From an uncultured Actinomycetes bacterium (lineage in GTDB: Bacteria; Actinomycetota; Thermoleophilia; UBA2241): DNA of 64,000 nt. The stretch is taken from NCBI GenBank assembly GCA_963783865.1, contig CAWAPD010000003.1:71171-135170 (forward strand), given 5' to 3'. Both the position numbers and the translations under genes were made by a program. Shown one piece after another: positions 3,803-47,959 of the stretch (its first letter is position 1; each line of letters starts with the position of its first letter). The notes beneath the pieces are model-generated. The model saw nothing but the letters and a program-made list of their open reading frames with translations, was not told where the DNA came from and ran no database searches.

Positions 3803-5362
3803 ATGGGCGGCCCGATCCCGACGCCGCTCGAGGGCCAGGTGGCCGGCAACGCGTTCTGGCTGTTCCTGCCCGGCATCGTGACGGCGGCGACGGCGATCCT
3901 CGTGCTGCTGGTCGATGCCGTGCTGCCGCGCCGCCGGGCGGTGCTCGCCTGGGTGGCCGCGGCCGGCCTGGTCGCCGCCGCCGCCGTCGCTCTCGGACAG
4001 TGGATGACCTGGAAGGGCGGCTGGGCGCTGTACGGCGTCTTCACCGGCAAGCTCCGGTTCAGCGGGCGCGAGGCCGTCGCCGGCTTCCACAGCATGGTCT
4101 CGATGGACCAGTACGCGCTCTTCTTCGTCGTGCTGTTCTGCGTGATCGGCGTCGTCTCGATCATGCTGTCCGACGACTACCTCAAGCGGCACCGCACGCG
4201 GCCCGGCGAGTTCTACGCCCTGCTGCTGATGGTCGTGACCGGCATGATCGGCATGGCGGCGTCGACCGACCTGATCGCCCTCTTCGTCTCGTTCGAGCTC
4301 ATGTCGCTACCGACCTATGTGCTCGCCGGCTCCCTGAGCGGCGACCGACGGTCGGGCGAGGCGTCGCTCAAGTACTTCGTCAACGGCGCCTTCTCGTCGG
4401 CGATCCTCGTGTTCGGGATGGCGCTGCTGTACGGCCTGACGGGGGCGACGTCCTACGCGCAGATGCACGCCCAGGCCGGCTCGTTCCCGCTGACGAGCGG
4501 CCTCGGCGTCGCCGGCCTCGTGCTGGTGATCACCGGCTTCGGCTTCAAGATCGCCGCCGTCCCGTTCCACGGGTGGGCGCCCGACGTCTACGAGGGGGCG
4601 CCGACGCCGTTCACAGCCTTCATGTCGGTCGGCATCAAGGCCGCCGCCTTCGCCGGCCTGATGCGCCTGTTCGGCGTGGCGCTGATGCACGGCTCGCTGA
4701 TCTGGACCGACGCGCTCATCGTCCTCGCGGTGCTGACCATGGTCGTCGGCAACGTGCTGGCGCTGCCCCAGCGCAACATCAAGCGGATGCTCGCCTACTC
4801 CAGCATCGCCCACGCCGGCTACCTCCTGCTCGGCGTGATCGCCATGGGCCGTTCCCACTCCTCCGGGGGCGTGAGCGCCGTCCTGTTCTACCTCGTGGCC
4901 TACGCGTTCATGAACCTGGGCGCCTTCGGGATCCTGGTGCTGATCCGCAACCGGCAGGCCGAGTTCCACTACCGGCTCGACGAGATCGCCGGGCTCGCCA
5001 GGCGCATGCCGGTCGCTTCCCTTGCGATGACACTGTTCATGCTCTCGCTGACCGGTATCCCGCCGCTGGCCGGGTTCTGGGGCAAGTTCTTCATCTTCGC
5101 GGCCGCGGTCGACGCCCACCTGTGGTGGCTCGCAGTGGTCGCGGTCGTCATGAGCGCCGTGTCGGCCTTCTACTACCTGCGCGTCGTCTGGTACATGTAC
5201 TTCCGTGAGGCGGCCGGCGCCGAGCCCGCGCTCGAGCGCACGAGCGCCGGCATGCGGGGATCGCTGGCGGTGGCGGCGCTCGGGGTCGTGGTCATCGGGC
5301 TGTATCCGCAGCCGGTCATCGCCGCCGCCCAGAACGCGCTGCGTATCCTGCTCGGCGGCTGA
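3803..5362 (+). CDS. nuoN: NADH-quinone oxidoreductase subunit N
   Basis: 519 aa ND2/NuoN-like membrane protein. ATG immediately follows the nuoM stop TAG. Confidence 0.9.
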   Translation: MGGPIPTPLEGQVAGNAFWLFLPGIVTAATAILVLLVDAVLPRRRAVLAWVAAAGLVAAAAVALGQWMTWKGGWALYGVFTGKLRFSGREAVAGFHSMVSMDQYALFFVVLFCVIGVVSIMLSDDYLKRHRTRPGEFYALLLMVVTGMIGMAASTDLIALFVSFELMSLPTYVLAGSLSGDRRSGEASLKYFVNGAFSSAILVFGMALLYGLTGATSYAQMHAQAGSFPLTSGLGVAGLVLVITGFGFKIAAVPFHGWAPDVYEGAPTPFTAFMSVGIKAAAFAGLMRLFGVALMHGSLIWTDALIVLAVLTMVVGNVLALPQRNIKRMLAYSSIAHAGYLLLGVIAMGRSHSSGGVSAVLFYLVAYAFMNLGAFGILVLIRNRQAEFHYRLDEIAGLARRMPVASLAMTLFMLSLTGIPPLAGFWGKFFIFAAAVDAHLWWLAVVAVVMSAVSAFYYLRVVWYMYFREAAGAEPALERTSAGMRGSLAVAALGVVVIGLYPQPVIAAAQNALRILLGG

Positions 5363-5442
5363 GGCGCCGCCGCGCCGGCCCGGCCGTTCCGGTCCTGTAT
5401 ACTTCGCGGGGGCCGCTCCCGGCCCCCACGAAGGGAAACCTT

Positions 5443-6216
5443 GTGAAGATCCTGTTCCTCGGTGACGTGGTCGGCCAGCCCGGCCGCGACGCCGTGTTGC
5501 GGCACCTGCCACAGCTGATCGAAGAGCACGACGCCGACTTCGTCGTCGTCAACGGCGAGAACGCCGCCAACGGCGTCGGCATCACGTCGAAGATCGCCCT
5601 GCGCCTGCTGGCCGGCGGCGTGGACGTGATCACCACGGGCAACCACGTGTGGCGCCAGAAGGAGGTCTATCCCTTCCTGGCGGCCGACGACCGCATCGTG
5701 CGGCCGGCCAACTTCCCGGCCGCCAGCCCCGGCCGCGGTCTCACCTGCCGGCCCTCGCGCAGCGGCGAGCCGGTGGCGGTCATCAACCTCATGGGGAACC
5801 TGTACATCGACGCCGGCCTGTCGCCCTTCCGCATCGTGGAGCGGCTGGTCGAGGAGGCGGCGGCGCTGGCCGAGACGATCGTCGTCGACATGCACGCCGA
5901 GGCGACCAGCGAGAAGGTGGCCATGGGCCACCTTCTCGCTGGTCGCGTCACCGCCGTCATCGGCACGCACACGCACGTGCAGACGGCCGACGACGAGGTC
6001 CTGGCCCCCGGCACGGCGTATATCACCGACGTGGGCATGTGCGGCTCCCACGACTCGGTCATCGGGGTCAAGAAGGAGATCATCGTCCGCCGTTTCCTCA
6101 CCGAGATGCCGGCCCAGTTCGAGGTCGCCGACAGGGACGTGCGGCTGAACGGGGTGGTCGTGACCAGCGAAGGCGGACGCGCGATCGGCGTGCGGAGGCT
6201 TCTGCTACAGGATTAG
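5443..6216 (+). CDS. YmdB-like metallophosphoesterase (2',3'-cyclic-nucleotide phosphodiesterase family, TIGR00282-like)
   Basis: N-terminus KILFLGDVVGQPGRD...FVVVNGENAANGVGIT...GNHVW closely matches B. subtilis YmdB. GTG start with an AAGGGA RBS. Confidence 0.8.
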   Translation: MKILFLGDVVGQPGRDAVLRHLPQLIEEHDADFVVVNGENAANGVGITSKIALRLLAGGVDVITTGNHVWRQKEVYPFLAADDRIVRPANFPAASPGRGLTCRPSRSGEPVAVINLMGNLYIDAGLSPFRIVERLVEEAAALAETIVVDMHAEATSEKVAMGHLLAGRVTAVIGTHTHVQTADDEVLAPGTAYITDVGMCGSHDSVIGVKKEIIVRRFLTEMPAQFEVADRDVRLNGVVVTSEGGRAIGVRRLLLQD

Positions 6217-6316
6217 ACGAGGTACCATTTGGTCACCATCACCCCATGGAGGGCGGCCGATTGGGCGGCCGCCGAGGGCGGGTACTTGGTGATACGCGGT
6301 CAAGCGTGAGGGTCTG

Positions 6317-7828
6317 ATGGCTGGTGGGAGCGTCAAAGAGAAGACAGCATACGCCGTCGCGCAATCCTCCGTGCCTGCCTTCGAAGGCGAAGAGACTGCC
6401 TTCGCGCCGGCCGGTCGGCGGGTCTTCGTCACCGTCCTCGCCGACGTCGTGGCCATCCTTCTCGCCGACCTGCTCGCGATCGGCATCACACGCTGGCTGA
6501 CCGAGGCTCCGAGCGCGGGACGTGTGTTCGCCCAGTTCGACGTGGCGCCCAACGGCGGGGCGTTCGCCGTGCTCCTGCTGATCCCCTGGTGGTTGTTCGT
6601 GCTCTACTCCTTCGGGCTGTACCGGCAGGCGCAACGCAGCATCGGGGGGTCGAGCTTCGACGAGGCCATGCACGGCCTGACCGCCCTGACGGTCGGGGCA
6701 TGGCTGCTGACGCTGGCACTCCTGGTCGTCGAGGGCGACGACACGTCGCTCGGCTACGTCCTCGTCTTCTGGGCCGCGGCGGCCGTGACGATCCCCGCGA
6801 TGCGCTGGATCGCGCGTGCTGTTGTCTGGTCAGGCGACACTTTTGCGGAGCGCACGGTGATCATCGGCGCCGGCACCGTGGGCCACACCCTGGCGGCCAA
6901 GATCGACAAGCACCCCGAGTACCACCTGCGCCTCGTCGGGTTCCTCGACGACGGCGAGCCGCTGGGCCGGACCAACTCGTCGGTGCCGGTCGTCGGCCAC
7001 CTGTCCGACCTCGACGCGGTGATCCGCGAGAAGGAGGTCACGCGCGTCATCATCGCCTTCTCCCGCGCCCGCCACCAGCAGATCCTGAGCGTCGTGCGGA
7101 CCTGTGCGGAATACGGTGTGCGGGTGAACATCGTGCCGCGGCTGTTCGAGATCCTCAGCTCGCAGATGGCGCTTGACGACATCGAGGGCATCCCGCTGCT
7201 CGATGTCGCCAACGTCGAGCTCAGCCGGTTCAACATGCTCGTGAAGCGGGCGTTCGACCTGGTGGTCGGCGGCCTGATCTTCCTCATCACGCTGCCGGTC
7301 ATCGCCGTCCTGGCCACGCTCGTGAAGCTCGACTCGCCGGGTCCCGTGTTCTACCGGCAGCCGCGCGCGGGGCGCGGCGGGCGCGAGTTCCGCATCTTCA
7401 AGATGCGCTCCATGTACATCGACGCCGAGAAGCGGCGCAAGGAGCTGGCGGCGATGAACGAGTACTCGGGGCCGATGTTCAAGATCAAGGAGGACCCGCG
7501 GATCACGCGCCTCGGCGCCGTCATGCGGCGCTGGAGCCTCGACGAGCTGCCCCAGATCTTCAACGTCCTGTCGGGCGACATGAGCCTCGTGGGGCCACGG
7601 CCCCTGTGGGTCGAGGAGGCGAGGCAGTGCCGCGGCTGGACGCGCAAGCGGCTCGACATCACGCCCGGGATCACCGGTCTGTGGCAGGTCCTCGGCCGTA
7701 ACGACATCCCGTTCGACGAGATGGTCAAGCTCGACTATATGTACGTCACCGGCTGGACGCTGAGCTGGGACGTGAAGCTGCTGGCGCAGACCGTACCGGC
7801 CGTGCTCGGCCGGCGAGGCGCCTACTGA
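6317..7828 (+). CDS. Exopolysaccharide biosynthesis polyprenyl glycosylphosphotransferase (WbaP/EpsL-type priming sugar transferase)
   Basis: N-terminal TM segments, a CoA-binding-like middle region and a C-terminal bacterial sugar transferase domain (DSPGPVFYRQPRAG..REFRIFKMRSM...LDELPQIFNVLSGDMSLVGPRP). Confidence 0.85.
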   Translation: MAGGSVKEKTAYAVAQSSVPAFEGEETAFAPAGRRVFVTVLADVVAILLADLLAIGITRWLTEAPSAGRVFAQFDVAPNGGAFAVLLLIPWWLFVLYSFGLYRQAQRSIGGSSFDEAMHGLTALTVGAWLLTLALLVVEGDDTSLGYVLVFWAAAAVTIPAMRWIARAVVWSGDTFAERTVIIGAGTVGHTLAAKIDKHPEYHLRLVGFLDDGEPLGRTNSSVPVVGHLSDLDAVIREKEVTRVIIAFSRARHQQILSVVRTCAEYGVRVNIVPRLFEILSSQMALDDIEGIPLLDVANVELSRFNMLVKRAFDLVVGGLIFLITLPVIAVLATLVKLDSPGPVFYRQPRAGRGGREFRIFKMRSMYIDAEKRRKELAAMNEYSGPMFKIKEDPRITRLGAVMRRWSLDELPQIFNVLSGDMSLVGPRPLWVEEARQCRGWTRKRLDITPGITGLWQVLGRNDIPFDEMVKLDYMYVTGWTLSWDVKLLAQTVPAVLGRRGAY

Positions 7829-7852
7829 GGGCACGTCCGCCCGTCGCCGGCG

Positions 7853-9427
7853 GTGAGCCTGGTGGGAGACGATGCCGGCGACCGTGTGGCGACACGCACG
7901 GCGAAGGCAGCGGCCGACCACCCGCCCCCGAGGCGCTGGCAAGTGCCCAGTGAGGGTATGGGTGAAGGCATGACCATCCAGACAGACAGGCCCGCGCCGC
8001 GCGTGGTCGAGGCCGGGGGCAGCCGGATCGAGCTGTTCGTCGACGACCGCATCGCCCCCGACGCGCGTGCCCTCGACCAGCTCGCGGCGCTCAGCCGGCT
8101 GCCCCACGTCGTGTCGCCGGTGGTCGCCATGCCCGACATCCACTCCAAGGGCCGCAACCCGGCCCCCACGGGCATCGTCGTCGCCGTCGAGGGCGGCGTG
8201 GTGCCGCTGGCGCTCGACGCCGGTCTCAACTGCGGCATGCGCGTGCACGTGCTGGACGCCGTCGCCGACGAGCTTTCGGAGGAGCGCCTGCGGCAGCTGT
8301 TCGCCGCCCTCTCGGAGGCCGTGCCGACGGGATGGTGGCCCGAGCCGGTACTGAGCGATCCCGAGCTCGAGGGTGTCCTGCGGACCGGCGCGGCCTGGGT
8401 GGTCGACCGCCGGGACGGCCGTGGCGGACCGGTGGCCCGCATCGAGAACGGCGGCGCGATCCCCGACCCGAGCCCGCGCGAGGTCCTGACCGGGCGCGTG
8501 CGGCGGCGGGCGCTGCGCGGGCTCGGCGTCCTGGGCGCCGGCAACCACTTCCTGGAGCTGCACGTGGTCGACAGCGTCCTGCACGAGCACGCCGCCGCCC
8601 TCGGCCTCGAGGAGGGTCGCCTGCTGGCGATCCTTCACTCGGGCTCCGGCGTGGTCGGCAAGAACCTCGGGCTCTACTTCGGGGAGCGCGACGAGCTGCA
8701 CGGGCGCCGCAAGCGGCAGACCCGCGCCGAGAAGCTGGTCTACCACCTGTCGGCGCCCGGACCGCGAGGCGCCCGCCTGCAGCACTTCCGCAAGGAGTTC
8801 GCCTGGCTGGCCGCCGATTCGGTCGAGGGGCGGCGGTTCCTGCGGGCGGTCGCCGTGGCGGCCAACTACGGCTACGCCAACCGGGCCGCCATCGGGGCCG
8901 CCCTCGAGCAGGCCGTCGCCCGCACGCTCGGCCCGTCGGTCGGCGCGCCCCTGCTCTACGACGTCTCGCACGTCCTCGTCCAGCGTGAGCAGCATGCCGG
9001 GCGCGACCTGTTCGTCCATCGCCACGGGGCCAGCCGCGCCTTCCCGCCGAGCCTGATGCGCGCGTCGGGAGCCGACGCCCTGTTCGCCGTCACGGGGCAG
9101 CCGTTCCCGGTGCCGGGCTCGATGGGCGACCACAGCTACATCTGCGTCGGCAGCGAGGGCGCCGCCACGACCTATTTCTCGGCCAACCACGGGGCCGGCC
9201 GCACGCTCGACAAGCCGCAGGCGCGCGAGGCCTTCACCGCCGACGCCGTGCGCGAGCAGCTCTCGGACCGCGGCATCGCCCTATACCAGCACGGCGCCGA
9301 CCTGGGGCTGGCCGAACAGGCCCCGGGGGCGTTCAAGGACGTCGCCGCCGTGATCGACGTGATGCAGCGGCTCGACGTCGCCGTGCCCGTCGCGCGCACC
9401 ACGCCGCTCGCCACGATGAAGGGCTGA
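7853..9427 (+). CDS. RtcB-family (RNA 3'-phosphate ligase-like) protein embedded in the EPS operon
   Basis: RtcB signature motifs are present: AMPDIHSKG, LDAGLNCGM (metal-binding Cys), GAGNHFLELH, HRHGASRAF and SANHGAGR (the guanylylated His). The true start may be the internal GTG/ATG at MGEGMTIQ. Confidence 0.75.
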   Translation: MSLVGDDAGDRVATRTAKAAADHPPPRRWQVPSEGMGEGMTIQTDRPAPRVVEAGGSRIELFVDDRIAPDARALDQLAALSRLPHVVSPVVAMPDIHSKGRNPAPTGIVVAVEGGVVPLALDAGLNCGMRVHVLDAVADELSEERLRQLFAALSEAVPTGWWPEPVLSDPELEGVLRTGAAWVVDRRDGRGGPVARIENGGAIPDPSPREVLTGRVRRRALRGLGVLGAGNHFLELHVVDSVLHEHAAALGLEEGRLLAILHSGSGVVGKNLGLYFGERDELHGRRKRQTRAEKLVYHLSAPGPRGARLQHFRKEFAWLAADSVEGRRFLRAVAVAANYGYANRAAIGAALEQAVARTLGPSVGAPLLYDVSHVLVQREQHAGRDLFVHRHGASRAFPPSLMRASGADALFAVTGQPFPVPGSMGDHSYICVGSEGAATTYFSANHGAGRTLDKPQAREAFTADAVREQLSDRGIALYQHGADLGLAEQAPGAFKDVAAVIDVMQRLDVAVPVARTTPLATMKG

Positions 9428-9431
9428 CGCA

Positions 9432-10907
9432 GTGTACGAGCAGCTGCGGCGCCTGTTCCGCCACTCGGCCGCCTACACCGCGGGGAGCATGCTGAACAAG
9501 GCGTTCGCGTTCCTGCTCGTGCCGATCTACACGCGCAGCATGACGCGCGGCGACTACGGCGACCTCGCCTTGCTGGGCGCCGGCGCGGCCGTGCTCGCCG
9601 TCGCCTACGAGTTCGGCATCTCGTCGGCCGTGATGCGCTTCTACTACGACTACGACGACGAGGGCTCCCGGCGCCGCTACATCGGCTCGATGTGGCTGTT
9701 CGTGACGGTCGCCACCGGGCTCGTGACCCTCGCGCTGCTGTTCTCGGGACACTGGTTCCTCGGCGCTTTGTTCAAGGACATCCCCTTCTGGCCGTATGTC
9801 GGCTTCACCATCCTCTCGACGTTCCTGTCGGCGGCCAACGTCATCCCCTGGGTGCTGATCCGCATCCGCGAACAGTCGACCCGGTTCATCGTGCTCGTGC
9901 TGGGCCAGTCGGTGGTGCTGGCCATCGCCGTGCTCGTGTTCGTGGTCGGCCTGCACCTCGGACTGCTCGGCGCCGTGCTGGCGGTCTTCGTGCAATCGTG
10001 CGCGATCTACGTGTTCTTCACCGCCTACACCTTGCGCAACGCCTCGCTGCGCGGCGTGGCCTGGGCGTTCGTGGCCGGCTCGGTCAAGTACGGGATGCCG
10101 GTGCTGCTGCTGCAGGCGGGGTGGTGGGTCCTGGACGCGTCGGACCGGTTCCTGCTGCGCCACTGGCGCCCCGCGTCGATCGTCGCGCTCTACAGCGTGG
10201 GGTACGCCATCGGGCGCATCCTGATCATGGTCTCGCAGGCGATCAACCAGGCCTGGACGCCGTTCTTCTACGCCACGGTCAAGGAGAAGAACCCCGACGC
10301 CAAGCGCCTGTTCAGCTACACGGCCACCTACTACACGCTCGTGGTCAGCGCTCTCGGGCTGGTCGTCGTCGTGTTCGCCCGCGAGGCGGTGCTGTTCTTC
10401 GGCGGACACGCGTACCTGCAGGCCGAGCGGGTGACGCCCCTGATCATGCTCGCCGCGGTGATCCAGAGCATGTTCTACGTGCCGAGCCGCGGCATCTTCC
10501 TGCAGAAGCGCACCGGCCTGCTGCCGCTGATCCTCGGCGCCGGGGCTGCCGTCAACGTGGGGCTGAACCTGTGGCTGATCCCGGCCTACGGGATGATGGG
10601 CGCCGCGGTCGCGACCGTCGCCGGCTACGCGGTCGCCGTCGCGTTCACCTTCGTCGTCTCGCAGCGGCTGTACCCGATCGACTACCAGGTCGGCCGCATG
10701 GCGACGATCTTCGCCGTGCTGATCGCGCTGTCGACGGCCGCCACGCTGGTCCATCCATCGGTGTGGTACGTTGCCGTGCTGTGGAAGATAAGCCTGCTGC
10801 TGGCGGCGCCGGTGGCGCTGTGGGCGCTCGGTTTCTTCGAGGACGCCGAGATCGCCAGGCTGCGGCACCTGCTGGCGCGACGCCGGTCGGTGGGGGAGGC
10901 GACGTGA
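9432..10907 (+). CDS. Wzx-like oligosaccharide flippase (MOP/polysaccharide biosynthesis protein family)
   Basis: 491 aa with about 12-14 predicted TM helices. The N-terminus FRHSAAYTAGSMLNKAFAFLLVPIYTRSM is typical of Wzx/PST-family flippases. Confidence 0.75.
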   Translation: MYEQLRRLFRHSAAYTAGSMLNKAFAFLLVPIYTRSMTRGDYGDLALLGAGAAVLAVAYEFGISSAVMRFYYDYDDEGSRRRYIGSMWLFVTVATGLVTLALLFSGHWFLGALFKDIPFWPYVGFTILSTFLSAANVIPWVLIRIREQSTRFIVLVLGQSVVLAIAVLVFVVGLHLGLLGAVLAVFVQSCAIYVFFTAYTLRNASLRGVAWAFVAGSVKYGMPVLLLQAGWWVLDASDRFLLRHWRPASIVALYSVGYAIGRILIMVSQAINQAWTPFFYATVKEKNPDAKRLFSYTATYYTLVVSALGLVVVVFAREAVLFFGGHAYLQAERVTPLIMLAAVIQSMFYVPSRGIFLQKRTGLLPLILGAGAAVNVGLNLWLIPAYGMMGAAVATVAGYAVAVAFTFVVSQRLYPIDYQVGRMATIFAVLIALSTAATLVHPSVWYVAVLWKISLLLAAPVALWALGFFEDAEIARLRHLLARRRSVGEAT

Positions 10908-12289
10908 GCGGAGGCACTCGGGATGGAGGCAGGCCCGACGGCACGGGGCGGGGCGGTCCGCTGCGCCACGTCCTGATCCTCGTCCAGAACCTGTCCGTGC
11001 CGCTCGACCGGCGCGTGTGGAACGAGTGCCGCACCCTGACCGCCGCCGGCTACGAGGTGTCGGTCGTCTGCCCGCGGGGCCGCACCCACGACCGCCGGTT
11101 CGTCGAGACGGTGGCCGGCGTGCGCATCTATCGTTATTCGGCGCCGCGCACGCTGCCCGGGCTCGCCGGCTACATCTGGGAGTACGGCTACGCGCTCACG
11201 TGCACGCTCCTGCTCGCGCTGGTCGCCTACGCGCGGCGCCCGTTCCAGGCCATCCACGCCTGCAACCCGCCCGACCTGTTCTTCCTGATCGGGCGCTTCT
11301 TCGGCCGCTTCGGCGTGGCCTACCTGTTCGACCACCACGACGCCAACCCCGAGATCCTGGTGGCCAAGCGCGGCGGCACGCCCGGGCACGGGTTCCCGGA
11401 ACTGGTGGTCGACTGGGCCGAGCATGGCAACTTCACGACCGCCGAGGTGGTCGTCTCGCCCAACGGCTCGTACCGCGACATCGCCCTGGGCAGGGGCGGA
11501 CGGCGACCGGAAGACGTGTTCCTGGTGCGCAGCGCGCCGTGGCTCGAGGAGTTCCCGGCCGGCGGCCCGGCCGGGTTCGACCGGCGCGGGCACGAGTTCC
11601 TCGTCGGCTACCTCGGCGTGATGGGCGTGCAGGACGGCGTCGACGTGCTGGTCCGCGCAGCGGCCCTGCTCGTCGACGCCGGCTACGACCTGCTGCTGTA
11701 CCTGGCCGGCGGCGGCGAGTCGTACGACGAGGTCGCGGCGCTCGCCGCCGAGCTCGGCATCGCCGACCGCGTGCTCATGCCCGGCTACCAGGACCGCGAC
11801 CAGTTCGGGCCGCCGCTGCGCAGCGCCGACGTGTGCGTGGCGCCCGACCCGCCGGGGCCGTTCAACGACATCTCGACGATGAACAAGATCGTCGAGTACA
11901 TGGCGCTGGGGCGCCCGGCCGTGGCCTTCGGGCTGCCCGAGAACCGCGTGTCGGGCGGCGACGCGGTGGTCTACGCCGAGGAGCCGACGGCCGAGGGCCT
12001 GGCGACCGCGATCGGGGCCGTGCTCGAGCTCGGCCCCGAGCGCGAGGAGCTGGCCCGCCGCGGCCGTCGCCGGTTCGAGCAGGCGCTCGCCTGGGAGCAC
12101 TCGCAGGCGCCCCTCCTGGCCGCCTACGAGCGCCTGGAGGAGCGCATGCGGGAGGGGGCGCGAGAGGGTCAAGCTTCCACGGGTGCGCCCGAGGGCGACG
12201 GTGCGGGGGCGCCGGGCGCCTCGAGCGGCGGCGAGCGGGTCGAGGCGTTCGAGGGGGCGAGACGAGGCGTTCGAGGGGGCGGGCCGTGA
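10904..12289 (+). CDS. Glycosyltransferase family 4 (GT-B, group 1)
   Basis: GTG 10904 overlaps the flippase stop (GTGA). VLILVQNLSVPLDRRVWNE is a GT4 N-terminal domain. The C-terminal domain carries the E..E region (KIVEYMALGRPAVAF). Confidence 0.8.
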   Translation: MSGGTRDGGRPDGTGRGGPLRHVLILVQNLSVPLDRRVWNECRTLTAAGYEVSVVCPRGRTHDRRFVETVAGVRIYRYSAPRTLPGLAGYIWEYGYALTCTLLLALVAYARRPFQAIHACNPPDLFFLIGRFFGRFGVAYLFDHHDANPEILVAKRGGTPGHGFPELVVDWAEHGNFTTAEVVVSPNGSYRDIALGRGGRRPEDVFLVRSAPWLEEFPAGGPAGFDRRGHEFLVGYLGVMGVQDGVDVLVRAAALLVDAGYDLLLYLAGGGESYDEVAALAAELGIADRVLMPGYQDRDQFGPPLRSADVCVAPDPPGPFNDISTMNKIVEYMALGRPAVAFGLPENRVSGGDAVVYAEEPTAEGLATAIGAVLELGPEREELARRGRRRFEQALAWEHSQAPLLAAYERLEERMREGAREGQASTGAPEGDGAGAPGASSGGERVEAFEGARRGVRGGGP

Positions 12290-13359
12290 GTGACGCGTCG
12301 CCGGCAGGCGGCAGCAGGACGATCGTCGCGCCGCAGGCGACGACGGACCCGGGGGGCGCCGCGGCGCCCGCCGTGCTCACGACCGTCGACCTGGGCGACG
12401 TCGCCGTCGCGCTGGAGGCGCCGGCCGAGCTGGCCGGGTTCGTGCGCGAGCGCTTCGCCCTTGCGCCGCCCGGCGCAAGGCCCGTCGTCGCCTCGCGCGT
12501 CGTCGCGGGGCCGGCGCCGGCCGGCGGCGTGCGCCGCGGCCGGCGCATCGCCGAATCGGCCGGCCGGGTGTGGTGCCGCAGCTTCCCGGGGCTGCCGGAG
12601 CTGACGGTGGCGGTGGCGCGGGGCGCTGCCGGCGGCGCGCGGCCGGAGATCGACACGGAGGTCTACTTCGACCGGCCCGGCTGGGTGCGGCTGTACAAGC
12701 GCCTGGTGGCCGGCGTCGGCGCCGAGCAGACGTGGGAGCAGCTCTCGTTCTACGGCCTGCTGTTCCCGGCTCTGCTCGCCGCCGAGCGGCGGGGACGGTT
12801 TCCGCTGCATGCCGGCGCTGTGGCTCGCGACGGCCGCGCCCTGGTGCTCAGCGGCCTGCCCGGCTGTGGCAAGTCGACGGTGGCGGCGGCGCTCGAACGG
12901 CGGGGATGGACGCTCGCCTCGGACAACCTGGTGACCGTGTCGGCCGAGGAGGTCTGGCCGCTGCCCGAGCCGGTGCGACTCGACGCCGGTTCGCGGGCCC
13001 TGGCCCGTGTCGACGAGGGTGACGGGGCGGCGGCGACGTACGGGCGCACGGCGCGGCGCCTCGAGGCGCCGAGCCGTGCGCTCGCCGCCGCCGCCCTGGT
13101 GCTGCTCGAGCGCGGCGACCGCACGTCGCTGGAGGCGGCCGAGGTCTCGGCCGGACACCTGCTCGACCTCGGCCGCCTCGCCTACGAGCTGCACGCCTAC
13201 GACCTGTACCGCGCGTTCGCCCGGCTCGCCGTCGGCGGGCCGCCGGCCGTTGAAGAGGCGACCGTGGCCGCGTGGCTGGCGCCGCTGCGCACCGTACACC
13301 TGAGCGTGGCCGACGGCGAGGTGGACGCGGCCTGCGACCTGCTCGGGGAGCTGGCGTGA
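12286..13359 (+). CDS. HPr-kinase-C-domain-like P-loop protein (HprK-related kinase family)
   Basis: GTG 12286 overlaps the GT4 stop. The core LHAGAVARDGRALVLSGLPGCGKSTVAAALERRGWTLASDNLV matches the HprK C-terminal P-loop signature (lHa.av...G.gvLl.G.sG.GKS..al.L..rGh.LvaDD). Confidence 0.65.
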   Translation: MSDASPAGGSRTIVAPQATTDPGGAAAPAVLTTVDLGDVAVALEAPAELAGFVRERFALAPPGARPVVASRVVAGPAPAGGVRRGRRIAESAGRVWCRSFPGLPELTVAVARGAAGGARPEIDTEVYFDRPGWVRLYKRLVAGVGAEQTWEQLSFYGLLFPALLAAERRGRFPLHAGAVARDGRALVLSGLPGCGKSTVAAALERRGWTLASDNLVTVSAEEVWPLPEPVRLDAGSRALARVDEGDGAAATYGRTARRLEAPSRALAAAALVLLERGDRTSLEAAEVSAGHLLDLGRLAYELHAYDLYRAFARLAVGGPPAVEEATVAAWLAPLRTVHLSVADGEVDAACDLLGELA

Positions 13360-14315
13360 GCGGCGGGCTCTTCCTGTCGTGGGCGCCCTTCTCGCGCCGC
13401 ACCGAGACGCTGGCGCGCCGCTTCGGGCTCCGGGAGGCGTTCGTCGGCAGCCCCTGGCCCAAGCGCCCGCTGTACGCCCCGCTCAAGTACCCCGCCCAGG
13501 CGGCGCGCACGCTGGCGCTGCTGGCCCGCGAACGGCCGGCGAGCCTGTGGGTGATGGACCCGCCCCTGCCCGCCGTCGCGCTCGCGGCGGCCGTGGCTCG
13601 CCGCCGCCGCGTGCCGCTGATCGTCGACGTCCACACGGTCGACTTCTACGACCCCAAGTGGCTGGCGCTGAAGCCGCTCGAACGCCCCCTGCTGCGCGGG
13701 GCCGACGCCGTGGTCGTGACGAACCGTTCGCTGGCTCGGCGCGTGCTCGGCTGGGGCTGCGAGGCGTTCGTCCTGCCCGATCCGCTGCCCGAGCCGCCGG
13801 CGCTGGGCGAGGTGGCCGTCGTGCCCCGGTCGGCGACCGTGGTCGCCACGTTCTCCGACGACGAACCCTTGCACCTGCTGCCAGCGGTCGCCAAGCTGCT
13901 GCCGGACGTCGAGATCCGCGTCACCGGCGAGCCGCGAGGGCGCGACGCCGGCTGGCCCGCCAACCTGCGGGCGACCGGCTTCCTCGACGACGAGGTCTAC
14001 TGGCGCACGCTGGCCGCCTCGGCGGCGGTCGTGGTCCTGACCACGCGACCCGACACGCTGCTGTCGGGCGGCTACGAGGCGCTCGCCCTGCGACGGCCGC
14101 TGGTCGTCTCCGACCAGGCGGTTCTGCGCGAGTACTTCGGAGACGCGGCGATCTACGCCGGGGTCACCGCCGAGGAGGTCGCGGGGGCGATCGGCGAGGC
14201 GCTGGCCCGCGGCGACGAGCTCACGCCGAAGCTCGATGCGCTGGCCCTGCGCCGCGAGGCGGAGTGGAGCGAGGCGGCGGTCGCGCTCGCCAGGGTCGCG
14301 GATGGGCGGCGGTGA
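13356..14315 (+). CDS. Glycosyltransferase-like protein (GT-B C-terminal-domain type)
   Basis: GTG 13356 overlaps the upstream stop. The C-terminal half (VVVLTTRPDTLLSGGYEALALRRPLVVSD) resembles a GT1/GT4 donor-binding Rossmann domain. Confidence 0.5.
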   Translation: MSGGLFLSWAPFSRRTETLARRFGLREAFVGSPWPKRPLYAPLKYPAQAARTLALLARERPASLWVMDPPLPAVALAAAVARRRRVPLIVDVHTVDFYDPKWLALKPLERPLLRGADAVVVTNRSLARRVLGWGCEAFVLPDPLPEPPALGEVAVVPRSATVVATFSDDEPLHLLPAVAKLLPDVEIRVTGEPRGRDAGWPANLRATGFLDDEVYWRTLAASAAVVVLTTRPDTLLSGGYEALALRRPLVVSDQAVLREYFGDAAIYAGVTAEEVAGAIGEALARGDELTPKLDALALRREAEWSEAAVALARVADGRR

Positions 14316-16261
14316 GCGGGCTCGTCGCCATCGTCTCGCGCGCCGCCGCCGCGCGCGCCCGCGGCCCCGCCGCCCTCGCGCGGCTGGCCCACACGCCGGC
14401 GTTCGAGAGCGCCTGCGCCGAGGCCGGCCGGCTGTGGATGGGGGCCTGCGGACTGCCGGGGACGGCTTCAGTGGGCTCGCCGGCCCCCGCCGCCGACGCC
14501 GCCACGAGCACGCCCGTCGTAGCTGCCGTCGCAGGCCACATCCTCAACGGCGCCGCGCTGCGCCGAGAGCTCGGACTCGCGCCGGGGAGCGACGACGCCG
14601 GCCTCGTGGCGGCCGCGTACGCGGCCTGGGGGGCCGGCCTGTTCGGCCGCCTCGAGGGAAGGTTCGCCCTGGTCGTGCACGACGAGGCCGCGGACCTCAC
14701 CTTGGCGGGCAACGACCCGTATGGTGTCCTGCCGCTCGTGCGGACCTCCCTGGGCGACGACCTCCTGCTCGCCACCGAGGCGAAGGCCCTGACCGCCGAC
14801 CCCCGCTTCCCGGCGCGGCTGGACGAGGCCGCGCTGGGCAGGCAGCTGCTGTTCGGCCAGCAATACGGCGAGGCGACGCTGTTCGCCGGTGTCCTCGAGC
14901 TCGAGCAGGGTACCCACTTCGAGCTGCGTGGCGACAAGGCGAGCGCCGTCCGCCACTGGGACCCGCGCGCGGCCATCGGCCCCAGCCTGCGCGGGGAAGC
15001 GTATGTCGAGCGCCTGGTCGAGACGATCGCCGGGATCGCCGGTGAGGCGTTCGACGGCGAGGCGATCGCGCTTCCCCTTACCGGCGGCCTCGACTCGCGC
15101 CTGCTGGCGGCGGCCATGCCGGCCGCGGCGGGACCGATGGCGGCGACTTTCGGCGCGCCGGCCGACGACGACTGCCGGCGCGCGGGACAGGTCGCCGCGG
15201 CGCGGGGGCTGCCCTACCGCGTGGTCCCGTTCGAGACGGACTACGTGGCGCGACACGCGCTCGAGACGGTCTGGCTGACCGAGGGCCGTCAGAACCCCGT
15301 CGACAACATCACCGGCTGCCTCATGCCCAGCCTGCGGCCCGCCGCCGAGTTCGTCAGCGGCATCTCCGCCATGGCGCGCGGCCACAACGCGGTGCGCGCG
15401 CGACTCGTGCCCGATTGGGACCTGATCGGTGCGACCGACGCCGGGCTCGAGTCCTGGCTGCGGGGTTATGCCGCGCGGCCGAGCCTCGACGCGAGCCAGG
15501 TCGGGTCCCTGTTCGGCGACCGCGGCCGCGAGCTGATCGCGCTCGCCGGCGAGAGCTTCGACCGGGCGGTCGAGGGCACGCGGGGCATGCCCGCCCTCGA
15601 CCGCCTCGACCTCTACCAGGTGACCGAGCGCGTGGGCGGCTACAACTGCCCCGGGCTCAACCTGGCGTCGGTCTGGCTCGGCGCCAGGGCGCCGTACCTC
15701 ACGCGCCGCTGGGTCGAGGCCGTCTTCGCGGGCGACGTCCTGGAGGGGGTCGACGACCTGCCGCGCCTGCGAGCCATCCGCCGGCTCGACCCCCGCGTGG
15801 CACGCGTCCCATGGGTCCTCACCGGGCTGTCGCTTGGGGCCAGCGAGCCGGTGGTCCTGGCCGTGAGGCAGGCTGCGAGGCTCGTGCCAGCCGCCGCGGG
15901 GAACCCGGATCCGGGTACGGTGGGAGCCGGGAACCGAGGACGGCAGACCGGCGCCCCGCCGCGGCGGGGCGCGCCGGCCGCCCTCCGGCGCGCGGCCGCG
16001 ACCGCCAGGCACCGTCTGTATCGCCACGGTGAACGGCGCGAGGAGTGGCTGCGCACCGCCTCGCGACCCTGGGTCGAGGAGGTGCTGCTCGCGGAGCGGA
16101 CCGCGGACCGCGGGTCCATGCGGCCCGAGGCGGTGCGGCGCCTCCTCGACGAGCAGTGGGCGGGTCAGGACCGCTCCTCCGCCATCGGACAGCTCCTCAA
16201 CCTCGAGCTGTGGCAGCGGTTGTTCGTAGACGGCGACACTGCGCCCGAGGTCGCCCCGTGA
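14312..16261 (+). CDS. Asparagine synthetase B-like amidotransferase (EPS-associated, lacks the N-terminal Cys nucleophile)
   Basis: GTG 14312 overlaps the upstream stop. The PP-loop LTGGLDSRLLAAAM (SGGxDS) and class-II GATase-like N-domain are present, but the N-terminus reads VSGLVAIV rather than MCG. Confidence 0.7.
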   Translation: MSGLVAIVSRAAAARARGPAALARLAHTPAFESACAEAGRLWMGACGLPGTASVGSPAPAADAATSTPVVAAVAGHILNGAALRRELGLAPGSDDAGLVAAAYAAWGAGLFGRLEGRFALVVHDEAADLTLAGNDPYGVLPLVRTSLGDDLLLATEAKALTADPRFPARLDEAALGRQLLFGQQYGEATLFAGVLELEQGTHFELRGDKASAVRHWDPRAAIGPSLRGEAYVERLVETIAGIAGEAFDGEAIALPLTGGLDSRLLAAAMPAAAGPMAATFGAPADDDCRRAGQVAAARGLPYRVVPFETDYVARHALETVWLTEGRQNPVDNITGCLMPSLRPAAEFVSGISAMARGHNAVRARLVPDWDLIGATDAGLESWLRGYAARPSLDASQVGSLFGDRGRELIALAGESFDRAVEGTRGMPALDRLDLYQVTERVGGYNCPGLNLASVWLGARAPYLTRRWVEAVFAGDVLEGVDDLPRLRAIRRLDPRVARVPWVLTGLSLGASEPVVLAVRQAARLVPAAAGNPDPGTVGAGNRGRQTGAPPRRGAPAALRRAAATARHRLYRHGERREEWLRTASRPWVEEVLLAERTADRGSMRPEAVRRLLDEQWAGQDRSSAIGQLLNLELWQRLFVDGDTAPEVAP

Positions 16262-17496
16262 AGCTCCTCGTCCTCGGCCACAACGATTGGTGGGTGTGGG
16301 CGCGCCAGGACTTCTGCACGCGCAACGGGGCCCTGGTGCGGGCCCTCGCGCGGCGGCCCGAGGTCGAGCGCATCGTCGTCGTCGACTCCCCGCGCTACCG
16401 CACGCGCTCGCACCGCCCCGAAGAGCGCCGCGGCGAGGAGGTCACGGAGGTCGCGCCCCGCATCGTCGCCCTGCGCCACGCCTATCCGGTGCCGGCCCCG
16501 GCCCGTTCACGCGAGGGCTGGCGCCTCAACGACGCGCTCACGCGCCGCCGTCTGGTCGACGCCTGCCGGCGGGCGCTGGCCGGCGGCGACGGCGAGGGTG
16601 GGGACGAAGCCGGCGACGAGACGGTCGGGAACGGGCCGGGCGGCACGGACGACGTGGTCGTGTGGGTCGCCGATCCCAGGCTCGCCTGGGCGGGGATCGC
16701 CTGCGCCGGCGGCGACCTGCTCGTGTTCGACGCGATCGACGACTGGCGGTTCCACCCCTGGGCGGGCCACCGCCTGGTCGACGAGGGCTACCACGCGATC
16801 GCCGACGCGGCCGACATCGTGACCGCGGTAACGCCCACGCTGCTCGAGACGCTCGCTCCGCGCGGCCGGCGGCACTCCCTCTTCAACGCGATCGACCCGG
16901 CCGCGTGGGCCGGCGTGCGGGCCGATCCCGGCCCGCTCGCCGGCCTGCCGCGGCCGGTCGTCGGCTATGTGGGCACGCTGCAGGCGCGCATCGACCCGGG
17001 GCTCGTCGTCGGCCTCGCGCGCGAGATGCCCGAGGCGACCTTCGTCCTGGCCGGCCCGGCGTTCCGCGGGTTCGGGCTCGACCCGGGGTCGATGCCGCTC
17101 AACGTGCGCCTGCTCGGGCCGGTCCCCCACCCCAGGGTGCCGGGTCTGCTGACGGCGTTCGACGCCTGCTTCATGCCGCATCTGACCGGCGGGCTGGCGA
17201 CGACCATGGACCCGTTGAAGCTGTACGAGTACCTGGCCGCCGGGCGACCGGTCGTGAGCACGCTGGCGCCCCCCAACCCGATCCTGACGCCGCACGTGCG
17301 CGTGGCGGCCGACCCGGCGGCCATGGCGGCCGCGCTGCGCGAGGAGCTGGCAGGCGACGACGCCGCGCGCCGCGAGGCGCGGCGCGCGGCGGTCGGGACC
17401 GAGACCTGGGAGGCGCGGGCCGCCGAGGTCGTGGGCCTGCTGCAGGAGGGCCTGACGGCCAAGAGAGACACGCCGCCGGCGGGGGCGCGGACATGA
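16258..17496 (+). CDS. Glycosyltransferase family 1/4 (GT-B)
   Basis: GTG 16258 overlaps the AsnB-like stop. C-terminal GT-B domain (LDPLKLYEYLAAGRPVVST). Confidence 0.65.
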   Translation: MKLLVLGHNDWWVWARQDFCTRNGALVRALARRPEVERIVVVDSPRYRTRSHRPEERRGEEVTEVAPRIVALRHAYPVPAPARSREGWRLNDALTRRRLVDACRRALAGGDGEGGDEAGDETVGNGPGGTDDVVVWVADPRLAWAGIACAGGDLLVFDAIDDWRFHPWAGHRLVDEGYHAIADAADIVTAVTPTLLETLAPRGRRHSLFNAIDPAAWAGVRADPGPLAGLPRPVVGYVGTLQARIDPGLVVGLAREMPEATFVLAGPAFRGFGLDPGSMPLNVRLLGPVPHPRVPGLLTAFDACFMPHLTGGLATTMDPLKLYEYLAAGRPVVSTLAPPNPILTPHVRVAADPAAMAAALREELAGDDAARREARRAAVGTETWEARAAEVVGLLQEGLTAKRDTPPAGART

Positions 17497-18380
17497 GCGC
17501 TGCTGGCGATGCCGGCGTCTGGGCGATCGTCGCCCACTACGGCGACCCCGGGCCCACGCGGCGCTGCCTGCGGGCGTTGGGCGACGCCGTGCCGCCGGAG
17601 CGCCGCCTCGTCGTCGACAACCAGGGCGGGTTCGACGACGAGGCGGCGCTCGTGCTGCGGCCCGGCGCCAACATCGGCTTCGCCGGGGCGGCCGCCCTCG
17701 GCGCGCGCCGGGCGCGCGCCGAGGGCGGCCGTTGGCTCTGGTTCGTGAACAACGACGCCGAGGTGAGCGGCGACTGCCTCGGGGCGCTGCTCGAGGCCGG
17801 CGCCGCGGACGCCGCGGCAGGCTTCCTCAGCCCGGTGATCACCTATGGGGCGACCGACGAGGTGTGGTTCGCCGGCGGCTTCGTCGACGAGGGGTCGCTG
17901 CGCACCGGCCATACGACCGCCGTGCAGGGCGACCGCCCGTACCCGACCGGCTACGTGACCGGCTGCGCGATGCTCGTGCGGGGCGAGGTGGTCGACACCT
18001 GCGGCGTGCCCGACGAGCGCCTGTTCATGTACCTGGAGGACGTGGACTGGTGCCTGCGCGGCCGCCAGCGCGGCTGGCGGTCGCTGGTGGTGCCGGGGGC
18101 GCGGGCCGGCCACGACGTCGAGCGGCGCGACCGCCGCCGCGTGTTCTCGGCCCGTGCCGTGTACTACGTGACCCGCAACCGCCTGCTGGTGGCTCGCCGC
18201 TCGACCACCCCGGCCCGCGCCCTGCCGCCGGCCCTCGACTGGGCCGGCCGCCAGGCGCTCAAGGGCGGCGACGCGGGCGGCGTGGCCCGGGCGAGCCTCG
18301 CGCTCGCGGCCGGCCTGGCCGACGGCCTGGCCGGCCGCTCTGGTCGCGCCACCCCCGGGCTCGAACGTATGCTGGACTGA
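17493..18380 (+). CDS. Glycosyltransferase family 2
   Basis: ATG 17493 overlaps the upstream stop (ATGA). The pattern WAIVAHYGDP...VDNQGG..., a DxD-like LEDVDW and GT2 topology are present. Confidence 0.7.
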   Translation: MSAAGDAGVWAIVAHYGDPGPTRRCLRALGDAVPPERRLVVDNQGGFDDEAALVLRPGANIGFAGAAALGARRARAEGGRWLWFVNNDAEVSGDCLGALLEAGAADAAAGFLSPVITYGATDEVWFAGGFVDEGSLRTGHTTAVQGDRPYPTGYVTGCAMLVRGEVVDTCGVPDERLFMYLEDVDWCLRGRQRGWRSLVVPGARAGHDVERRDRRRVFSARAVYYVTRNRLLVARRSTTPARALPPALDWAGRQALKGGDAGGVARASLALAAGLADGLAGRSGRATPGLERMLD

Positions 18381-24356: not shown

Positions 24357-24882
24357 GGAAGCTCCACAGCTTGTTGGCCACGAAGTTGACGGGCATCACC
24401 GTGACGATCGCCAGGAGCTGGCTCGCGAGGAGGCTGAGTCCGATCTGGGCATGACACAGCCAGAATACCGTGAGGTTGCCGGCGTAGGCGACCACGCTGA
24501 CGGTGAAGAACTTCGGCAGCTCCCGCGCGACGGGGTTGCCGGAACGGAACGTCCACCAGCGGTTGAGATAGTAGTTGGTGAACACCGACACGACGAAGCC
24601 GCAGAGGTTGGCCAGGTACCCGGCGGCGCGGGCGATGTCGCCGGTGTGCTTGAACACGATCTCGCCGCTGTAGTGGCGGACGTCGGCGAAGGAGTGGACG
24701 TCGCCGGCCACGGCCACCCACAGGAGCAGCGTGAGCGTGAACACGACGAGGTTCACGACGACGCCGCTGATGCCGACCAGCGCGAACTTCAGGAACTGCT
24801 TGACGCTCTCGTTCAGACCACGGTCCATGGCCATCCGGGTCGAGACGGAAGGATGCCCGGGCGGGCCGGGCAGGGCCATCAT
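24340..24882 (-). CDS. GtrA family protein (polysaccharide synthesis membrane protein)
   Basis: KQFLKFALVGISGVVVNLVVF...YYLNRWWTF is the GtrA signature. Four TM helices. The true start is probably the internal MAMDRG. Confidence 0.75.
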   Translation of the reverse strand: MMALPGPPGHPSVSTRMAMDRGLNESVKQFLKFALVGISGVVVNLVVFTLTLLLWVAVAGDVHSFADVRHYSGEIVFKHTGDIARAAGYLANLCGFVVSVFTNYYLNRWWTFRSGNPVARELPKFFTVSVVAYAGNLTVFWLCHAQIGLSLLASQLLAIVTVMPVNFVANKLWSFRESQS

Positions 24883-47143: not shown

Positions 47144-47158
47144 GGCGGCGAGTCAGCG

Positions 47159-47959
47159 ATGCGCACCATCTCCATCGGCCGGCCGTTCGCCGTCTTCTCG
47201 GACGTGCACGGCAATCTGCCCGGGCTCGAGGCGATCCTCGCCGACGTCGACCGCCGCGGGATCGCAGACGTGCTCTGCCTCGGCGACCTCGTCGGCTACG
47301 GACCCTTTCCCGACGAGGTCGCCGCGCTCGTCCGCGACCGCGGCATCCCCACCCTGATGGGCAACTACGACCAGGGTATCGGCTTCTCCACCGGCGACTG
47401 CGGCTGCGTCTACAAGACCGACGAGCAGCGCGACGAGGGGGCGGTCTCGCTGACCTGGACCGACGCGGTGACCGGCGACGAGACGCGGGCTTACCTGCGC
47501 AGCCTCGAGGACCGCTTCGTGCTGGAGACGCCGGCCGGCGAGCTGCTCGCCGTGCACGGCAGCCCGCGGCGTATCAACGAGTACCTCTTCGAGGATCGTC
47601 CGGAGAGCGCCATGACCCGCATGGCCGAGGCAAACCCCTATCGCGCCATCCTCTTCGGCCACACGCACGTGCCCTATGCGCGCGAGGTCGCCCGCGGGGC
47701 GGCCGGCGAGACGACGTTGTTCGTCAACGTCGGCAGCGCCGGCCGCCCCAAGGACGGCGACTGGCGCGTGTGCTACGCGCTGGTCGACCCCGGCAGGCTC
47801 GCCGCCGGCGAGCCTGCCGTCGAGTTCGTGCGCGTCCCTTACGACTACGATCGCCTGACCGCGGCGCTCGCGGCGACCGACCTGATCACCGCGTTCGACC
47901 CTCCGCCACACCCGGCGAGCGCCGACCGGCGGGCGGCCACCGGCGGAGACACACGGTGA
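47159..47959 (+). CDS. Metallophosphoesterase family protein (YfcE/MJ0936-like)
   Basis: Motifs [18 protein letters not shown], and GHTH. Confidence 0.7.

Follow-up and report, generated by a model that had tools for sequence, protein, structure and literature searches.

Across the literature searched, RtcB is treated as a nucleic-acid enzyme. Paralogs with dedicated partners have arisen, such as RtcB2 with PrfH in ribosome repair and the DNA/RNA-capping RtcB1-3 of Myxococcus xanthus, and for such paralogs the final product can be a phosphate end capped with GMP (PMC9304027, PMC10630183). The contacts of RtcB with the 5′-OH strand are made by Asn202, His203, His242, Gln194, Arg190, and Arg238 (Pyrococcus horikoshii, Pho, numbering throughout), and the E. 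coli residue equivalent to Arg238 is required specifically for the sealing step (PMC8051266). In the assembly of the cobalamin nucleotide loop, CobU (a P-loop kinase and His-GMP guanylyltransferase) yields Cbi-GDP, CobS condenses it to the phosphodiester, and the pathway ends with CobC, a phosphatase of the His_Phos_1 type (PMC8092220). Here, we analysed an RtcB-like gene lying within a polysaccharide locus in a 64-kb stretch of DNA from an uncultured Actinomycetes bacterium (contig CAWAPD010000003.1, positions 71,171 to 135,170; hereafter the window). Its sequence places it in a distinct, previously undescribed RtcB clade, and the genomic tie of this clade to glycan genes is strong. A full-text literature search returned nothing relevant tying RtcB to polysaccharide loci, flippases, HPr-kinase-like proteins, or biosynthetic gene clusters.

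The window protein resembles the canonical enzymes (P. horikoshii PH1602, T. thermophilus TTHA1785, E. coli RtcB, and human RTCB) in its fold, in the His of the HGAGR motif, in the Cys and three His ligands, and further in Asn202, Phe204, Glu206, the PGSMG loop, Lys480, and Arg408. It differs from them in the replacement of Asp95 by Gly, of Arg412 by Lys, and of Tyr451 by Phe, in a two-residue insertion that gives a Lys-x-Arg-Asn by His67, and in the absence of Arg238, Gln194, and His242 from the tier to which it belongs. The neighbours of the clade differ as well, being glycan genes and a P-loop phosphotransferase-like protein instead of RtcA, RtcR, archease, or PrfH. RtcB2-PrfH and M. xanthus RtcB1-3 still act on nucleic acids, whereas the window contains no prfH and its RtcB-like protein reaches 99 bits against a cut-off of 272 for TIGR03073 (release_rtcB). 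The protein is thus an RtcB by fold and core residues, but it departs from the canonical RNA ligases at Asp95, at the 5′-OH-strand contacts, and in the equivalog scores, and the usual partners are missing.

The RtcB-like protein and its clade

The RtcB-like gene occupies positions 7970 to 9427 of the + strand and encodes 485 residues from an ATG at 7970, within a frame that is open from 7853. The open reading frame (ORF) 7853-9427 matched PF01139 over the entire profile (1-426 of 426) with an E-value of 1.1e-90 and 305.4 bits against a cut-off of 27. The original prediction had placed an RtcB-family gene in a polysaccharide operon, and this assignment was borne out by the full-length match, the priming transferase upstream, the Wzx flippase downstream, and the Wzx/Wzy locus around them. 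Among solved structures, T. thermophilus TTHA1785 and P. horikoshii RtcB come closest (E-value 2e-57, ~30% identity). An AlphaFold2 model built on 20 homologs (pLDDT 92.3, pTM 0.92) adopts the RtcB fold. Foldseek matched it to P. horikoshii RtcB with GMP/Mn (4dwq_A) with TM-scores of 0.82/0.84 at about 30% identity and gave no significant non-RtcB chain.

The window DNA is ~70% GC, and open frames run long in it. The 24-nt gap that was first read between the priming transferase and the RtcB-like gene is an ORF artefact of this composition. The true start of the gene is likely ATG 7970, which is favoured by the N-termini of homologs (window, MTIQTDRPAPRVV; P0002, MSVETVRSAPRVL; P0004, MTIEQDFLRPRL); public gene calls use GTG 7943 or ATG 7958 as alternatives. 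As the gene starts at 7943-7970 and not at 7853, the spacing from the stop of the priming transferase (7828) is 114-141 nt depending on the start, and 141 nt from ATG 7970. The 4-nt gap between the RtcB-like stop and the GTG start of the flippase gene is genuine, as originally stated. Compared with P. horikoshii RtcB, the window protein carries a longer Arg/Lys-rich helical insertion, encoded at 8660-8830 (residues ~245-292 counted from GTG 7943; HGRRKRQTRAEK). This insertion is a subfamily feature, placed after the His234 motif and weakly conserved in sequence, and could serve as a contact for the membrane, Wzx, or a partner.

The active site was examined by mapping its residues and comparing them with published contacts and with the 120 best database homologs. 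The window protein keeps Asp65, His67, Cys98, Asn202, His203, Phe204, Glu206, His234, and His329, together with the PGSMG loop, His404, Arg408, and Lys480. The guanylylated nucleophile His404 lies in SANHGAGR (codon 9188-9190) and survives careful alignment, being invariant in 120/120 homologs. The Mn1 ligands Cys98 (codon 8231-8233), His234, and His329 are likewise present and invariant, and the GTP-site set of Asn202, Phe204, Glu206, PGSMG, and Lys480 is kept, with Tyr451 conservatively changed to Phe. For Mn2, the ligands Cys98 and His203 are present and Asp95 is Gly (codon 8222-8224) in the window protein and in 120/120 homologs; a displaced Asp (codon 8216-8218) stands two residues upstream of the Asp95 column, in LDAGLNCG of the window protein and DxGxNCG of the homologs. 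A two-residue insertion in the His67 loop gives a new invariant Lys-x-Arg-Asn (codons 8147-8158), which is found in all 120 best homologs, and Arg412 is Lys in the subfamily. On the strand side, Arg238 is Gly (codon 8648-8650) in the window protein and in 19/19 closest homologs, which form the Wzx-linked tier. Gln194 is Gly and His242 is Lys in the window protein, and both canonical residues are absent across the whole subfamily, so that among Arg238, Arg190, Gln194, and His242 the window protein keeps Arg190 alone. The original claim that all hallmark motifs are retained therefore stands for His404, Cys98, the three His ligands, and the GTP site and falls for Asp95 and Arg238; the description of the enzyme as catalytically intact was overstated, given the displaced Asp95 and the lost Arg238. 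As far as residue conservation can tell, the guanylylation site and the phosphate-end site look intact, and the site that holds the nucleic-acid strand does not.

All 120 best homologs share HxKxRNxxPTG (with the two-residue insertion), DxG(I/L)NCG, HGAGRxxDK, and F451, and ~60 positions, all remaining catalytic residues among them, stay invariant over a range of 36-65% identity. In a neighbour-joining tree of 64 sequences and 467 columns, the subfamily and a degenerate sister clade split from 39 canonical RtcBs in 200/200 bootstraps, so the phylogeny that had been suggested as a check sets them apart as a separate clade. The score of the window protein lies well under every NCBIfam RtcB cut-off, and the equivalogs are missed by far (135 against 407 bits for NF007153, in addition to TIGR03073). 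The sister clade (L108-L113, e.g., L110 5260-6714) retains the metal-binding Cys and three His, the nucleophilic His, and the displaced Asp and has lost Asn202, PGSMG, Arg408, and the C-terminal Lys (Lys480).

Conserved glycan-gene context and the ScmC-like partner

The context of RtcB genes was scored with hidden Markov models (HMMs) built from the proteins of the locus, counting features up to 4 kb away from RtcB. Loci flanked by 3 kb or more on each side were taken as full-flank loci, namely 13 of the subfamily and 51 canonical ones. A contig scan with the full-length alignment had yielded mostly canonical RtcBs, 78 loci of which were reused as negative controls; the relevant loci in that scan were L009 and L010, and the pattern GQPxxxPGSM was not subfamily-specific. 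A metagenome scan with the N-terminal alignment gave 23 contigs, mostly short. A gene for an ScmC-like protein, a P-loop protein described below, was found beside RtcB in 12/13 subfamily loci against 0/51 canonical full-flank loci (Fisher p = 4e-12), and Wzx in 6/13 against 0/51. When all loci are counted, at least one of ScmC, Wzx, GT4, and APH is present in 23/27 of the subfamily and in 3/79 canonical ones.

At 56-65% identity the order RtcB-Wzx-ScmC recurs, inside a full exopolysaccharide (EPS) locus in L004 and L006 and in a minimal form in L001 and L003, where glycosyltransferases are lacking and a secreted lyase-like or Big_7/CHU_C protein is almost the only neighbour. The adjacency of RtcB and Wzx is conserved in L001, L004, L006, L008, and L092-L097, and the two genes are spaced by 1-4 nt or overlap in the relatives. 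In L003 (11476-13079), the Wzx between RtcB and ScmC was matched by HMM as six ORF fragments, which reflect either a decaying flippase gene or frameshift errors of a long-read assembly.

At 37-43% identity, including KSB1 and Calditrichia metagenome-assembled genomes, a second locus type with ScmC-RtcB was identified (L007, L089, L090, L091, L115, and one JGI locus). It begins with two to three APH-family kinases, followed by GT4, a sensor kinase, a response regulator, another GT4, His_Phos_1, the ScmC-like protein, and RtcB, and continues with GT4 or APH, one or two DUF5666 proteins, and then the OEP/MFP/MacB genes of a MacAB-type exporter. This arrangement resembles a regulated pathway by which a phosphorylated glycoconjugate is exported. 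The His_Phos_1 gene directly precedes ScmC-RtcB in L007, L115, and the JGI locus, and its best model is CobC, at 116 bits against a cut-off of 163. The sister-clade gene has ScmC-like, GT4, CapD-like dehydratase, and DegT aminotransferase genes to one side and genes for an APH-like kinase and a Wzy/PGT protein (PGT, phosphoglycosyl transferase) to the other. The link between RtcB and glycan genes persists over 37-65% identity despite the differing gene orders. Because relatives at 42-65% identity keep RtcB-Wzx-ScmC or ScmC-RtcB beside glycosyltransferases, the placement of the gene is no accident of one genome. Of the glycan-linked role first proposed for the gene, it is this conserved placement, absent from the 51 canonical loci, that holds; the chemistry is a matter of inference.

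The ScmC-like proteins of both context types align over their full length and conserve a His, a GxxGxGK(S/T)T P-loop, an S(D/E)N motif, and an EPxRLD (ExR) motif. The original prediction had overlooked this conserved P-loop phosphotransferase-like partner. Their profile matched HPr kinase/phosphorylase in the PDB with an E-value of 4e-5, and Hpr_kinase_C was matched by 7/9 members, the window partner remaining below the gathering score. The precomputed Pfam match of the window partner is ScmC (PF27840), and it scores 57 bits against a cut-off of 200 for TIGR04352 HprK_rel_A (HprK-related kinase A). The motifs and profile matches identify the ScmC-like protein as a PEPCK/HprK-fold P-loop protein with a Walker A loop, and very probably as a phosphotransferase. 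With HPr kinase/phosphorylase and ATP-PEPCK it shares the GxGK(S/T)T P-loop after a conserved His and the ExR motif; it differs from HPr kinase/phosphorylase by an Asn in the 'ADD' motif, by scores below the cut-offs, and by a context without HPr or phosphotransferase system (PTS) genes and without radical-SAM or PqqD genes.

A search of 1.84 billion representatives with the ScmC-like protein returned 123 clusters at E <= 1e-30. Conversely, when ScmC-like proteins were searched for in their own right, the two picked from the hits both had RtcB immediately downstream, in the long locus type. Several gene fusions were also found. In P0197 the ScmC-like protein is fused to an RtcB part that bears the subfamily motifs, and in P0255, from a different clade, to a degenerate RtcB-like domain. 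P0188 and P0195 are ScmC-like/GT4 fusions in both domain orders, P0257 is a GT2-ScmC fusion, and P0190 joins an ABC exporter to ScmC. These fusions tie RtcB to the ScmC-like protein, and the ScmC-like protein to glycan synthesis and export. Those with glycosyltransferases and the exporter suggest that the ScmC/PF27840-like family is broadly a glycan-pathway enzyme, beyond peptide maturation.

The rtcA or rtcR context of canonical RtcB, whose presence elsewhere had been named as part of what would refute the first proposal, was not encountered: none of rtcA, rtcR, archease, prfH, and Ro was present in the 64-kb window or in the 13 Pfam-annotated subfamily loci. A search with the RtcB profile, which covered the first 30 kb of the window, detected no further RtcB there. 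PADLOC gave no defence hits at the locus, with no PADLOC model existing for any component, and an anti-phage defence system was rejected for lack of PADLOC hits. Pfam annotation revealed no mobile-element genes at the glycan locus.

The polysaccharide locus of the window

Gene models of the window were obtained with a codon-usage gene caller and a frame plot of GC content at third codon positions (GC3), and were annotated with Pfam and NCBIfam. The locus is compact, and its genes are mostly co-directional. On the + strand it opens with a priming polyprenyl-phosphate hexose-1-phosphate transferase of the WbaP/WcaJ type (6317-7828, with a start at 6317 or 6371), supported by Bac_transf (E-value 7.5e-62), CoA_binding_3, and TIGR03025 (403.5 bits against a cut-off of 296). 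Behind the RtcB-like gene follows a Wzx-type MOP flippase (Polysacc_synt; 9432-10907, GTG start; PF01943, 51.7 bits), the sole flippase detected at the locus, whose N-terminus aligns with the Wzx proteins of L001, L004, and L006. A GT4 glycosyltransferase (10904-12289; Glyco_trans_1_4, E-value 4.5e-17, and Glyco_trans_4_4) and the 357-residue ScmC-type PEPCK/HPr-kinase-like P-loop protein (12286-13359) come next. These two genes lie in different frames with a 4-nt overlap and are hidden by ORFs 9692-12289 and 11017-13359, which are high-GC composites; the GT4 gene was recognized from GC3 frame analysis and the gene call. Still on the + strand are a short GT4-like glycosyltransferase (13356-14315), an asparagine-synthase-like amidotransferase (GATase_7 and Asn_synthase; 14312-16261) with a counterpart near RtcB in L001 and L006, a GT1/GT4-like glycosyltransferase (16258-17496), a GT2 glycosyltransferase (17493-18380), and a Wzy-type polymerase (Wzy_C; 18380-19801). 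The − strand encodes an alginate-lyase-like protein (19860-21206), a Wzz/GNVR and P-loop polysaccharide co-polymerase (PCP) of the BY-kinase type (21342-22865), a GT87/GT-C-like membrane glycosyltransferase (22911-24287), and, at the edge of the glycan locus, a GtrA-family membrane protein (24340-24834). A secreted lyase-like or Big_7/CHU_C protein is also encoded near RtcB in L001, L003, L004, and L006.

With PGT, Wzx, Wzy, Wzz/PCP, and several glycosyltransferases together, the locus is a classical Wzx/Wzy polysaccharide cluster. No Wza/OPX export protein was among the Pfam hits for 1-38 kb, a region in which no search aimed at Wza/OPX was made, and the locus annotations include no nucleotide-sugar synthesis gene. 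A lasso-peptide or other ribosomally synthesized and post-translationally modified peptide (RiPP) cluster was rejected for the window, as no RiPP recognition element (RRE), transglutaminase-like leader peptidase, or precursor was among the Pfam hits of the locus. In a scan of 5200-13500, no site resembled a promoter, and neither the spacer ahead of the RtcB-like gene (7829-7969) nor the RtcB-Wzx junction held anything like a terminator; all five terminator-like hits of the scanned region fall within coding sequence or upstream of the transferase start. The Rfam scan detected no RNA other than one tRNA.

The locus is flanked by a YmdB-type metallophosphoesterase gene (5443-6216, + strand; PF13277, E-value 2e-99; TIGR00282, 279.8 bits against a cut-off of 254), which stands directly upstream of the priming transferase, and the pair of YmdB and priming transferase recurs in L004. 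B. subtilis YmdB is a 2′,3′-cyclic-nucleotide phosphodiesterase that affects biofilm formation. That a glycan locus containing RtcB has another enzyme of the cyclic-phosphate type next to it may be no coincidence. The rest of the window contains housekeeping genes (IleRS, Asd, aspartokinase, NadE, GlnA, and a two-component pair), an arsenic-type cluster, and an integrase. The possible arsenic-handling cluster (46289-49134) comprises an ArsM-like S-adenosylmethionine (SAM) methyltransferase, a metallophosphoesterase, and an ACR3/SBF-family transporter. The phage-type integrase (54080-55384) lies ~1.4 kb from tRNA-Arg(CCT) (56821-56896), and the GC content falls to 0.62-0.65 from ~56 kb on; this region may be an integrated element.

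A possible phosphate-handling unit and its alternatives

From these sequences and gene neighbourhoods, the RtcB-like and ScmC-like proteins may form a cytoplasmic two-enzyme phosphate-handling unit that acts on an exported-glycan intermediate and not on broken RNA, a reading whose chances we judge to be about even. The ScmC-like P-loop partner, or an APH-family kinase in sister contexts, would phosphorylate a hydroxyl of the lipid-linked repeat unit or of a substituent. The RtcB-like protein would load GMP from GTP onto its conserved His, as residue conservation suggests, and would pass it to the phosphate monoester to give an X-O-P-P-G intermediate. A second hydroxyl would then attack, forming a phosphodiester and releasing GMP, and the translationally coupled Wzx would flip the completed unit. 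The reaction would be RtcB chemistry with a sugar replacing the nucleotide; all of this chemistry is inferred. The activation of a phosphate monoester and its joining to a hydroxyl are made more concrete by the conserved P-loop phosphotransferase-like partner, which is sometimes fused. With less assurance, and leaning slightly against it, we suggest that the clade may be the first RtcB-type enzyme on a non-nucleic-acid substrate, which with its partner 'heals and seals' a sugar to leave a phosphodiester bridge for export by Wzx or MacAB.

Two known routes help to place such a reaction. CobU, CobS, and CobC resemble it by analogy and not by kinship, in that a monoester is converted to X-GDP via His-GMP and a hydroxyl then displaces GMP, and in that a His_Phos_1 protein with CobC as its best match precedes ScmC-RtcB in three sister loci. 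They differ in that CobU has no sequence or fold kinship to RtcB or ScmC, no corrinoid genes are present, and His_Phos_1 falls under the CobC cut-off. TagF/LicD-type and Stealth-type transferases build glycan phosphodiesters from CDP-alcohol or sugar-1-phosphate donors. Here too the outcome would be wall or capsule polymers bridged through sugar-phosphate-sugar or sugar-phosphate-alcohol linkages; however, those enzymes move a pre-activated phospho-group, whereas here the acceptor phosphate would be activated in place via His-GMP. Pfam annotation detected no member of the TagF/LicD/Stealth-type families at the locus.

Several points weigh against the proposed glycan reaction. The displaced Asp95 could mean that activity is altered or weak. 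The group as a whole cannot share GTP-dependent chemistry, as the sister clade lacks Asn202, PGSMG, Arg408, and Lys480. The HprK 'ADD' motif of the partner has an invariant Asn in place of its second Asp, and L008 carries RtcB-Wzx without ScmC. The loci are phylogenetically non-independent, and some of them supplied the scoring HMMs; 11 ScmC/context-positive loci are independent of HMM building, and the Pfam tables concur. The retained GTP site, His, metals, and Arg408 are equally required by an RNA ligase, basic residues persist close to the site (Arg190, plus the newly gained Lys and Arg), distant members of 460 residues (tier 3) keep Arg238 in 71/75 cases, and the locus could depend on a regulatory RNA event.

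These last features, along with the full RtcB fold (TM-score 0.82) and the varied nucleic-acid activities known among RtcB paralogs (PMC10630183), would suit an ordinary RNA/DNA 3′-phosphate/5′-OH ligase co-transcribed with envelope genes, for stress-coupled repair or for a regulatory-RNA ligation that controls the polysaccharide. We regard this explanation as unlikely. ScmC-like and Wzx genes accompany none of the 51 canonical full-flank loci and GT4 only two; no RNA-repair partner occurs in the window or the annotated loci; RtcB ligation needs no kinase; and RtcB occurs fused to a PEPCK/HprK-like protein that itself occurs fused to glycosyltransferases and an exporter. Moreover, Asp95 is displaced in all members, and the residues that hold the phosphates of the 5′-OH strand are lost in the window's tier (PMC8051266). 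That loss, of Arg238 and His242 in particular, suits an enzyme with no incoming strand left to position, and so would fit a nucleotidyltransferase that halts after the second RtcB step and moves GMP from His to a sugar-1-phosphate made by the ScmC-like protein or APH, giving a GDP-sugar for the GT4 enzymes. Such a salvage-type route would be analogous to kinase and pyrophosphorylase pairs, and RtcBs do cap phosphate ends with GMP (DNA3′pp5′G; PMC8051266, PMC10630183). GT4 flanks RtcB in most sister loci, where APH-family kinases are repeated, and no nucleotide-sugar synthesis gene was found at the locus. We nevertheless consider the GDP-sugar route quite unlikely, because Asn202, by which P. 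horikoshii RtcB positions the attacking hydroxyl, is invariant throughout the subfamily, a single RtcB faces up to three APH kinases per locus, and the tight RtcB-Wzx coupling and the glycosyltransferase-free L001 and L003 fit a late lipid-linked step better than precursor supply.

The nearest named families of the partner, HprK-related kinases A/B and the ScmC of a peptide-maturation cassette, raise a third explanation, in which the HprK-like protein, in the manner of HPr kinase and lasso-peptide kinases, phosphorylates Ser/Thr of a protein or peptide, the RtcB-like protein joins this phosphate to a sugar (phosphoglycosylation) or guanylylates it, and Wzx or MacAB exports the product. The nearby Asn-synthase-like gene has a weak lasso-cyclase match, and the sister loci contain small DUF5666 proteins, MacB-type exporters, and an APH with a weak LxmK (lanthipeptide kinase) match. 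This modification is distinctly improbable, as the Asn-synthase-like protein matches EPS-type amidotransferases and AsnB better than a lasso cyclase (37 bits against a cut-off of 525), all neighbours in the window locus are classical Wzx/Wzy polysaccharide genes, and genes for PqqD/RRE, a leader peptidase, or a precursor peptide were not seen. Polysaccharide loci are known as hot spots of recombination. An RtcB-kinase cassette of a mobile or selfish kind could ride in such variable loci as a passenger, or a decayed, non-catalytic protein could serve as a scaffold for the flippase, and both the missing canonical Asp95 and the loss of GTP-binding residues in the sister clade could be read in this way. 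We find this highly improbable in view of the ~60 invariant positions, which take in all remaining catalytic residues, the conserved Wzx order with its 1-4 nt spacing or overlap, the fusions with glycosyltransferases, and the lack of PADLOC defence hits and mobile-element genes at the locus.

Should the RtcB-like protein prove to act on RNA, it would still be unexpected to find an RNA ligase wired into, and fused with, glycan machinery. If instead the clade handles sugar phosphates, the His-GMP phosphate activation of RtcB would extend to glycobiology, and the ligase-partner unit would provide a new way to make surface polymers with phosphodiester bridges, and such polymers influence charge, adhesion, and immune recognition. 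This activity would also give a role to several thousand metagenomic 'tRNA-splicing ligase' annotations and to uncharacterised ScmC-like proteins, and would offer a GTP-dependent ligase as a tool for joining phosphorylated sugars. For the uncultivated KSB1, Calditrichia, Krumholzibacteriia, and Eisenbacteria-like lineages, it would mean a new enzymatic route to phosphate-bridged polysaccharides.

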